Below are positions 12,091-12,651 of a DNA stretch of 64,000 nt, one piece after another (positions within the stretch are counted from its first letter, which is position 1; each line of letters begins with the position of its first letter). Position numbers and translations under genes: made by a program. The stretch lies in the NCBI RefSeq assembly GCF_048403405.1, contig NZ_CP183129.1; one strand, written 5' to 3'. This DNA comes from Escherichia coli. GTDB taxonomy: Bacteria > Pseudomonadota > Gammaproteobacteria > Enterobacterales > Enterobacteriaceae. The notes beneath the pieces are model-generated. The model was not told the origin of the DNA. It saw only the letters and a list, made by a program, of their open reading frames with translations, and ran no database searches.

Positions 12091-12651
12091 CTACATTGAT
12101 ATATGATTCATAAAGTAGCTTAGAGATTTACTTCCCAGAAAAGAAATTTCTTTTCCTGGATATGTCGCAATAATTGAGCATGACTTATCCCCGTTAGAGG
12201 TAACAAATCCTGAATAACCTACTTGTTCTTTACCATTTTGTTGCTTGGCTAAAAAGTAGAGGTAGCTTATCTTTTTGCCCTCTGGGTAAAACTCTGCCAA
12301 ACCAGTATCGGTGATTGAATATTTTATTCTCCCGCCTTGAGTAACGTTTTCCATCTCAAGTTTAGCTATGTCTTTTCTGTTGTATTCAGCATTGATTTTC
12401 CTTTCGAAATCAATGTTGTTTTCAAATGAGTAGGAAGCAACAGTCTGAATAGATGGGAACACGTTTATCTGGATGCCTCCACAGTCGGCACAGGTATAAA
12501 GGTATGAATCAGATGGAATCCCCATAAAAGAAAACTGAGTTACCTTAAATTTATCGCTATCTCCAAAGTATTGAAGTTCGCATTTAACATTTTGCCCTGC
12601 AAAAGAAAATGCAGACATCAATATTGAAACAAAAAATATAATTGCCTTCAT
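12091..12651 (-). CDS. secreted/periplasmic protein of unknown function (AT-rich moron)
   Basis: 186-aa ORF with N-terminal signal peptide MKAIIFFVSILMSAFSFA; AT-rich codon usage unlike neighbours; immediately downstream of the giant ORF block. Confidence 0.6.
   Translation of the reverse strand: MKAIIFFVSILMSAFSFAGQNVKCELQYFGDSDKFKVTQFSFMGIPSDSYLYTCADCGGIQINVFPSIQTVASYSFENNIDFERKINAEYNRKDIAKLEMENVTQGGRIKYSITDTGLAEFYPEGKKISYLYFLAKQQNGKEQVGYSGFVTSNGDKSCSIIATYPGKEISFLGSKSLSYFMNHISM

Follow-up and report, generated by a model that had tools for sequence, protein, structure and literature searches.

A small exported protein encoded behind podophage ejection genes in an Escherichia coli satellite: a possible role in superinfection exclusion

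The 64,000-nt stretch of Escherichia coli DNA analysed here (contig NZ_CP183129.1; hereafter the window) carries, directly behind three genes for podophage ejection proteins, a gene for a 186-aa protein. Its sequence identifies it as a real and intact gene under purifying selection, and its product belongs to a protein family that is new in sequence and of known fold. Comparison of loci delineates the position it occupies, for the first time, as a hot spot of exchangeable genes for envelope-targeted proteins. As to function, we tentatively propose, by analogy with known systems, that the protein is a periplasmic blocker of incoming phage DNA delivery, i.e. that it acts in superinfection exclusion in the broad sense; among the functions suggested in an earlier note on this DNA (exclusion, envelope modification or host interaction), exclusion would be the best-supported guess.

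The ORF occupies positions 12091–12651 on the minus strand, starts with ATG, ends with the stop codon at 12091–12093 and is identical to RefSeq WP_000643933.1, a ‘hypothetical protein’; no rival ORF of at least 40 aa lies over it on the plus strand. It follows an 850-aa gene, the last of the three large genes, whose TAA stop codon lies at 12656–12654. The junction (12652–12663, minus strand) reads TAA-TA-ATG, a gap of 2 nt, and is preceded by a Shine-Dalgarno-like AGGT motif at 12663–12660, 8 nt ahead of the start codon and inside the end of the 850-aa gene. An intrinsic terminator (12050–12077, minus strand) lies 13 nt past the stop codon and consists of a G+C-rich hairpin at 12077–12060, with a 7-bp stem (six GC pairs) and a 4-nt loop, followed by a T-run. 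Because the gap is only 2 nt and a terminator stands downstream, the ORF is by its layout the last cistron of a unit with the 873-, 565- and 850-aa genes. Co-transcription with these genes, as the earlier note had it, is the reading that the sequence favours, and the family gene lies directly after the last ejection gene in all eight resolvable loci, at 35–92% identity and with gaps of 2–23 nt. It is not a recent addition to the operon, since members only 35–45% identical occupy the same position.

The AT-rich composition and the foreign codon usage noticed earlier are both borne out. The ORF has a G+C content of 35.7% (GC3 33.9%), compared with 53–58% in the large genes (55.0, 57.9 and 53.1%; GC3 57–61%), and lies at the 3rd percentile of 561-nt windows across the 64 kb. 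The contrast is repeated in five other loci, and every homologue examined keeps a low G+C content (31–37%) beside adjoining genes of 50–57%. On its codon usage and signal peptide the gene had been described as moron-type cargo, a description that stands in part. Its base composition is foreign, it has its own terminator, and it is exchangeable, with other genes filling the site in loci L003, L004, L005, L014 and L015. The moron in the sense of Juhala and Hendrix, however, includes its own promoter (PMC3594210), and no site with at least 9 of 12 consensus matches was found on the coding strand between 11500 and 13500. A relaxed scan for sigma-70-like promoters in the 650 nt upstream of the ORF gave at best 8 of 12 matches, one such site overlapping the start codon; both were consensus scans, which a weak or non-sigma-70 promoter could escape. 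The gene therefore lacks one defining feature and is not a strict moron, and expression from the repressed (prophage) state is not indicated, as no promoter was recognised for it.

Export of the protein, also proposed in the earlier note, is well marked in the sequence. The N-terminus consists of MK, then AIIFFVSILMSAF, then SFA-GQ, with the predicted cut between A and G; codons 1–18 (12598–12651, minus strand) thus encode a Sec-type signal peptide, MKAIIFFVSILMSAFSFA, predicted to be cut before G19, in which a basic n-region precedes a hydrophobic core of 13 residues and the residues at −3 and −1 of the c-region are small. Only the first 19-residue window of the protein is strongly hydrophobic (1.85), and neither a lipobox Cys at +1 nor a second hydrophobic segment is present. 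The signal pattern (FA before E, D or G) recurs in 19 of 19 family members despite differing residues; the call was made from hydropathy, the −3/−1 rule and this conservation. We infer that the product is a Sec-exported, soluble periplasmic protein with a mature domain of 168 aa (12094–12597, minus strand; 18.9 kDa, pI 5.9). Across the 19 members, down to 29% identity, four cysteines (C24, C54-x-x-C57 and C158) and thirteen further residues are invariant.

The family is small and confined to one order: eight clusters at 50% identity were found among 1.84 billion representative sequences, all from Enterobacterales, with homologues in Salmonella, Citrobacter, Cronobacter, Enterobacter, Klebsiella and Hafnia. 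At least 1000 contigs encode the exact 186-aa protein; they come from E. coli, Klebsiella and further Enterobacteriaceae. All 15 of the cluster members listed are full-length at 186 aa, and pairwise dN/dS is 0.09–0.13 where it could be computed, with dS near saturation. Disruption in most homologous elements, which the earlier note had named as evidence that would count against its reading, was not seen; nearly all copies are full-length, and a few (P0015, P0017 and P0022) are truncated. Searches of Pfam, NCBIfam and PADLOC gave no credible match, no family of the PADLOC-DB 2.0 defence-protein models matched at E values up to 1, tblastn against 50,697 phage genomes found nothing, and a literature search on WP_000643933.1 was likewise empty. 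The protein matches phrog_11983, of unknown function, over its full length. Two apparent hits were rejected: one to NlpE, which scored 13.6 bits against a cut-off of 243 and involved only the signal peptide, and one to T5 Llp in the PDB (8a60_B, E = 0.037), which also covers the signal peptide alone.

Structure prediction, suggested earlier as a check, was more informative. A first AlphaFold model, built with the signal peptide and 14 close homologues, reached a pLDDT of only 44; the model was rescued by dropping the signal peptide and adding five distant members, and the AF2 model of the mature protein has a pLDDT of 89.6. It places the protein, with high confidence for a predicted structure, in the PsbP/Mog1/DcrB (DUF1795)-like superfamily, as a protein-binding scaffold of the PsbP/Mog1/DcrB-Eag/Tsi3 type. 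The structure matches include the Eag chaperones SciW (9.7) and PA0094/EagT6 (9.5) together with Mog1 (9.6) and LpqN (9.1), as well as Tsi3 (8.0), TplEi (7.9), DcrB (7.8) and PA3488/Tli4_C (7.3), and Foldseek agrees with the assignment. In a viral structure library two matches were significant, both to phage lipoproteins, one of them named ‘host cell surface-exposed lipoprotein’.

The resemblance stops at the fold. No sequence relation to the PsbP/Mog1/DcrB/Tsi3/Tli4_C superfamily is detectable, and family HMMs (e.g. PF01789, PF04603 and PF08786) gave no match, either to the query at E values up to 1 or to the 19 members at E values up to 10. The cysteine set is specific to the 186-aa family, and DcrB is a lipoprotein, whereas the 186-aa protein has no lipobox. 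A theme common to the fold relatives is a beta-sheet platform that grips other proteins, and for several of them the place of action is the periplasm of Gram-negative bacteria. Transmembrane helices are what Eag chaperones clasp; DcrB, a host periplasmic factor that some phages need for DNA injection, is required for infection by C1- and C6-type phages. The scaffold is also a generic one, used by photosystem, Ran-cycle and mycobacterial proteins.

The large genes upstream, the ‘giant ORFs’ of the earlier note, can be named more exactly. All lie on the minus strand and are called here, in order of transcription, E1 (16902–19523, 873 aa), E2 (15203–16900, 565 aa) and E3 (12654–15206, 850 aa). 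E1 matches phrog_1044 and has a lytic transglycosylase (SLT) domain at residues 233–339 (PF01464, E = 1.5e-17), E2 matches phrog_3003 and E3 matches phrog_684, a ‘virion structural protein’. E3 shares 45–49% identity with proteins of the virion structure in Pseudomonas phage Tr60_Ab31 and Stenotrophomonas phage BUCT708 and about 30% with internal virion proteins of podoviral pelagiphages, and homologues of E2 adjoin the SLT protein in the same phages. In complete prophages (that of strain ECONIH2, and locus L013) the trio is preceded by genes for a T7-gp14-family core protein, tail, ‘capsid staple gp10’, Bbp16-type cement, capsid, portal and terminase, and followed by a reverse-strand accessory cassette, a tailspike gene and a lysis cassette; from these annotation names we take the prophages to be temperate podophages with an epsilon15/BPP-1-type head. 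The PHROG matches, the SLT domain, the structural homologues and the prophage context together indicate that the large genes encode podophage internal-virion (ejection) proteins, of the kind that build a trans-envelope conduit for DNA.

The gene behind E3 varies. Among complete E. coli genomes a 51-bp segment containing the terminator (12040–12090) is present in 516, whatever gene precedes it, while this type of E3 is present in 62 and the 186-aa ORF in 55 of these 62. Eight unrelated occupants of the position were recognised, among them membrane proteins with multiple passes (98 aa, strain ML35) or two helices (46 aa, EC21Z-151; 113 aa, A287), secreted proteins (283 aa and Cys-rich in IMT16316; 123 aa and encoded behind the same E3 allele in N21) and lipoproteins (137 aa and encoded by the second gene in L010; 232 aa in satellite EcCIMP1). 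Each has a signal peptide, a lipobox or transmembrane helices, as judged by eye from the sequences. Such uniformity is unlikely to be due to chance: if roughly 30% of proteins were targeted to the envelope, the probability for eight of eight would be about 0.3^8. Profile–profile comparison of three occupants with the 186-aa family showed no homology, the signal peptides alone aligning. In databases the occupants are ‘hypothetical protein’ or, for that of EcCIMP1, ‘Lipoprotein’, with PHROGs of unknown function, and several are found on hundreds to thousands of contigs.

The 186-aa family itself is also combined with different ejection genes. In locus L018 E3 is 87% identical to that of the window and the small protein 45%; in L007 the small protein is 70% identical and E3 only 24%. 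Judged from such pairs, the small gene assorts independently of the alleles of the large genes and forms a module of its own; its product generally diverges faster than E3 and is still under purifying selection. Downstream of the family gene in L021 come two Arc-like genes, then genes for a KilA-N/ANT antirepressor and a tailspike. The P22 immI region has this arrangement, with sieA between genes 16 and 9.

The element that carries the operon in the window is a satellite and not a phage, which further amends the earlier view of the giant ORFs. A 7.5-kb cassette (12016–19535, minus strand) comprising E1–E2–E3, the 186-aa gene and the terminator is 99.5% identical to a module of the complete prophage of strain ECONIH2; the homology ends 12 nt upstream of the E1 start codon and just past the terminator, and this segment is the only part of the surrounding island shared with the complete prophage. 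The island itself (10757–29806; 19,050 bp) lies upstream of dadX, where it has entered an LRR gene at its 3′ end. An empty insertion site is seen in strain 4621, and the sequence indicates insertion into the LRR gene by site-specific recombination; another strain has a copy, 99.9% identical, in the dinD–yicC interval. Apart from the cassette, the island encodes an integrase, Rha, AntA/AntB, Icd-like, DUF4222, DUF927 primase, SSB, ProQ/FinO and PerC proteins; its gene content includes no capsid, terminase, tail or lysis genes, and Rfam gave no match over the whole island.

Integrase, regulators, primase-replicase and attachment-site flanks are those of a PICI-type satellite, and the closest described relative of the island is EcCIMP1, a satellite that podophage Kapi1 mobilises experimentally and that adds superinfection immunity (PMC11773190). 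The two elements share DUF927 primases (62% identical) and AntA/AntB proteins (60% identical) as well as Icd-like, DUF4222, PerC and integrase genes, and in both an ejection-protein module is followed by a gene for an envelope protein. The integrases differ, however, as do the sites (tRNA-Thr/proA in EcCIMP1, the LRR gene or dinD–yicC here), and so does the cargo: P22-type ejection proteins with the 232-aa lipoprotein in EcCIMP1, an epsilon15-like trio with the 186-aa periplasmic protein in the island. A deleted prophage was considered and rejected, given the homology of the backbone to this validated satellite and the presence in strain A287 of the same backbone with a different ejection trio and different small membrane genes. 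The backbone recurs in at least 21 genomes, and a second type of satellite, at yicC, carries the trio together with a member of the 186-aa family. The arrangement reads as a four-gene cassette captured by a PICI-type satellite, with the 186-aa gene travelling along with the ejection genes.

Considering what such a protein may do, the proposed sequence of events is as follows. From its layout, the gene would be transcribed as the last cistron of the ejection operon and translated from a coupled start. The conserved features suggest that the product is exported by Sec, that signal peptidase I cuts it after Ala18 to leave 168 aa, and that the four invariant cysteines form disulfides. The predicted PsbP/Mog1/DcrB-Eag fold, assigned with high confidence, would then serve as a grip on other proteins, for which the T6SS immunity proteins Tsi3 and Tli4, the Eag chaperones and DcrB provide parallels for the scaffold. 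The partner could be the ejected proteins of a superinfecting relative, e.g. the parts that insert into the membrane or cut peptidoglycan, or else some periplasmic factor of the host on which these proteins depend; binding would abort DNA entry and leave the trans-envelope conduit of the incoming podophage unfinished. As no promoter of its own is visible, the protein may act during induction of the element, in the manner of T4 Spackle, Imm and T5 Llp, and not from the repressed state. The layout, conservation and composition of the gene are direct observations, export and fold are predictions, and partner, effect on infection and timing we infer by analogy. The signal peptide, the four cysteines, the fold, the slot after E3, the nature of the other occupants, the accessory behaviour of the gene, the precedents described below and the link to EcCIMP1 all speak for exclusion; the lack of a homologue of known function, the generic fold, the lack of a promoter and the absence of the gene from 50,697 phage genomes speak against it.

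None of the known exclusion systems is an exact counterpart. T4 Spackle (gp61.3), a helical 97-aa early protein of a virulent myophage, is like the 186-aa protein in being small, Sec-exported and periplasmic, and the two have no family in common. It inhibits the virion (tail) lysozyme from the periplasm and so stops superinfection (PMC7677548); it thus binds a cell-wall hydrolase of the virion, and the operon here opens with an SLT-domain ejection protein. In locus L007, however, E1 has no recognisable SLT domain, yet the family gene is present, which weakens a lysozyme-inhibitor version of the proposal modelled on Spackle.

P22 SieA is comparable in place and, as proposed, in target. Like the 186-aa gene, sieA occupies the interval between the last ejection gene and the tailspike gene, and it encodes an envelope protein, sporadic among related phages, that is directed against the ejection-protein conduit, since mutations allowing escape from it fall in gp16 and gp20, both ejection proteins (PMC10461980). 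SieA is a polytopic inner-membrane protein, however, and the predicted soluble periplasmic protein with its single hydrophobic segment lacks the SieA motif FnRYPnEAnnFNK, shows no sequence similarity and so does not belong to the SieA family. sieA had also been considered an exact positional counterpart, a view downgraded since the P22 annotation shows it convergent to gene 16 with its own promoter, whereas the 186-aa gene is co-directional with E3 and starts 2 nt after it. The analogy consequently concerns the interval and not the transcription unit, and sieA may have its truer counterparts in the adjoining reverse-strand genes.

In its operon the gene is also like that for HK97 gp15, the original ‘moron’, an envelope protein encoded within the late structural operon, which blocks genome injection in a manner that depends on the tail of the incoming phage (PMC3594210). 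Both genes are accessory, co-directional with late structural genes, foreign in composition and directed to the envelope; gp15, though, is a YebO-family protein of the inner membrane, small and expressed from its own promoter in the prophage, while the 186-aa protein is predicted to be periplasmic and no promoter was found for it. T5 Llp and Cor are likewise phage-encoded and exported, with roles in exclusion or lytic conversion, but they are lipoproteins that block the outer-membrane receptor FhuA, and the 186-aa protein has no lipobox. Two of the slot occupants in relatives are lipoproteins, as Llp and Cor are.

Other functions for the 186-aa protein have to be weighed against exclusion, three of which we consider improbable. 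The fold of Tsi3 and Tli4 raises the idea of an orphan immunity-type protector against a periplasm-acting toxin of rival bacteria (a T6SS muramidase or lipase, or a colicin-like toxin), carried as a fitness gift to the host. The resemblance is one of fold only: the top structure matches are not immunity proteins, no HMM or sequence match to immunity families was obtained, and in none of the eight loci is an effector or T6SS gene nearby, the neighbours being ejection proteins, antirepressor-type genes or tailspikes and the gene being strictly tied to the ejection-protein operon. Host conversion, in which the secreted protein would alter the envelope or host interaction (stress signalling, adhesion, serum or bile resistance), is the part classically played by AT-rich cargo genes of phages, lambda bor and lom among them (PMC3594210), and the 186-aa gene is common among Enterobacterales of clinical and animal origin. 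We give it about as little credence, as there is no similarity to virulence families, a Sec signal alone would keep the protein in the periplasm, and a host-directed factor would not be expected to stay linked to ejection proteins at identities as low as 35%.

A late periplasmic factor that adjusts when the cell lyses or how its envelope breaks down, for instance by sensing in the manner of an antiholin or by modulating endolysin or spanins, would be in keeping with a gene that has no promoter to itself and appears to be expressed together with the late structural genes, and T4 RI and the spanins are likewise periplasmic. Such a helper seems no more probable than the previous two, given that lysis is fully provided for at another location in the full prophages, by a cassette of two holins, a GH19 endolysin and a DUF2514 protein, that the gene is dispensable and replaced by unrelated tiny membrane proteins, and that the satellite in the window keeps it without any lysis genes.

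Two further explanations are more remote still. Were the ORF a silent passenger, with neither expression nor function, the missing promoter, the truncated copies P0015, P0017 and P0022 and the AT-rich composition would be easily understood, since H-NS silences AT-rich DNA in enterobacteria; a dN/dS of about 0.1, invariant cysteines and motifs kept down to 29% identity, the nearly universal full length and the conserved start–stop coupling make this very improbable. Scarcely any weight attaches to a fourth ejected virion protein whose hydrophobic N-terminus is a membrane-insertion segment and not a signal peptide: the gene is translationally coupled within the ejection operon and P22 gp7 also loses 20 N-terminal residues according to its annotation, but gp7 is cut by cytoplasmic OpdA and not by signal peptidase, the AxA-type cleavage motif and four invariant cysteines point to an oxidised periplasmic protein, the structural genes have a different codon usage, and membrane proteins of 46 or 98 aa can take the place of this one.

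Returning to exclusion, few anti-phage mechanisms are as poorly understood as those that stop phage DNA from entering, and only a few of these are known at the molecular level. What the comparison offers is a precise and recognisable position, the first gene after the last ejection gene in epsilon15-like and P22-like podophages and their satellites, where at least eight unrelated, uncharacterised envelope proteins alternate in Enterobacterales and constitute a short list of candidate entry blockers. For the 186-aa candidate there is a confident model, and the signal peptide and the four cysteines are obvious targets for mutagenesis. That satellites of podophages carry whole modules of ejection proteins also bears on how they exploit or resist their helpers. 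A bolder extension, which we regard as doubtful, is that the family founds a class of its own, soluble exclusion proteins of the periplasm that are built on an Eag/DcrB-type fold and capture the membrane-inserting or wall-cutting parts of ejection proteins, and is at the same time one allele of a portable cassette, in which an envelope guard accompanies the ejection proteins and which PICI-type satellites copy from helper phages, the unrelated slot proteins being further alleles. In EcCIMP1 no known defence system was found and the route of immunity is unexplained (PMC11773190); if that extension were true, it would supply the missing mechanism for the superinfection immunity of EcCIMP1-like satellites. 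The finding is relevant, too, to the choice of therapeutic phages against lysogens of E. coli, Klebsiella and Salmonella.

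The ejection-protein cassette of this island is exchanged as one unit inside a single satellite lineage, since an island in E. coli A287 (L015; NZ_CM163380.1, 84000-111000), located at dinD-yicC, has a backbone 99.9% the same as that in the window, while its giant-gene trio (843, 686 and 918 aa) and its small membrane genes differ from those at window 12016-19535. Both cassettes close with the same terminator. Of 5426 E. coli genomes, 516 have a 51-bp terminator segment (window 12040-12090) conserved at 98-100%, with unrelated slot genes, i.e. those directly following the last ejection-protein gene, and differing ejection-protein types upstream of it. 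The segment seems to serve as a fixed recombination boundary for this hot spot.

The island itself (window 10757-29806; 19,050 bp) is integrative and has a satellite-type backbone, encoding an integrase, Rha, AntA/AntB, an Icd-like protein, DUF4222, a DUF927 primase, SSB, ProQ/FinO and PerC. Its gene content includes the three ejection-protein genes and no capsid, terminase, tail or lysis genes. Compared with EcCIMP1, a validated PICI and satellite of podophage Kapi1 in E. coli MP1, the primase is 62% identical and AntA/AntB 60% identical. The gene for the PerC-family regulator is frameshifted in the window (19959-20184), and its counterparts in the identical islands of A287 and of L001, a further dinD-yicC copy, carry a pseudogene annotation.

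The same island occupies two chromosomal sites, the 3' end of a leucine-rich-repeat gene in the window versus dinD-yicC elsewhere. Comparison of the junction regions in the window (10740-10770 and 29775-29810), at the empty site of strain 4621 (L012, 16740-16780) and in L001 (19040-19070 and 38070-38110) showed that recombination had taken place within a short core sequence, about ATTCTGAA. The window also has paired ATTATGTACACnnnTATGTACACG motifs, at 10824-10847 and at 29637-29660, which resemble integrase arm sites. The leucine-rich-repeat gene (window 9412-10758) is cut short by the insertion; its ORF comprises 448 codons and stops 2 nt inside island DNA, and the intact gene in strain 4621 (L012, 15412-16848) extends 92 nt past the insertion point.

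The 1.26-kb left arm (window 10757-12016) was seen only in the two island-bearing genomes, contains no convincing ORF and has no match in Rfam. It carries tandem ATAACCCGCAAA-type repeats at 11328-11372, with inverted copies near 11228-11255, and may serve as an origin, for packaging or as a set of regulatory iterons.

A second satellite-like element, with another gene order, adjoins yicC in GCA_006035975.1 and SRR5440666 (L017/L018, 1-16000). It begins with the genes for an integrase, an SLT protein split in two and ejection proteins of 562 and 848 aa; next come a gene of the 186-aa family (45% protein identity), an AlpA-like gene and that for a DUF927 primase. Further stretches that are strongly AT-rich (GC 29-37%) are found at window 27001-27500, 49501-50000 and 56001-61500, some of these off the island.

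Whole ejection-protein modules on podophage satellites are not spelled out in the literature that we found; the EcCIMP1 paper (PMC11773190) describes the genes of this module as possible packaging genes. In EcCIMP1, the slot behind the final ejection-protein gene is occupied by the gene for a 232-aa lipoprotein (L016, 12632-13330; signal MIKNLLLILSLSLLAGC), the exact sequence of which is present on at least 1000 contigs. This lipoprotein is a candidate for the factor behind the reported, unexplained superinfection immunity of the satellite.
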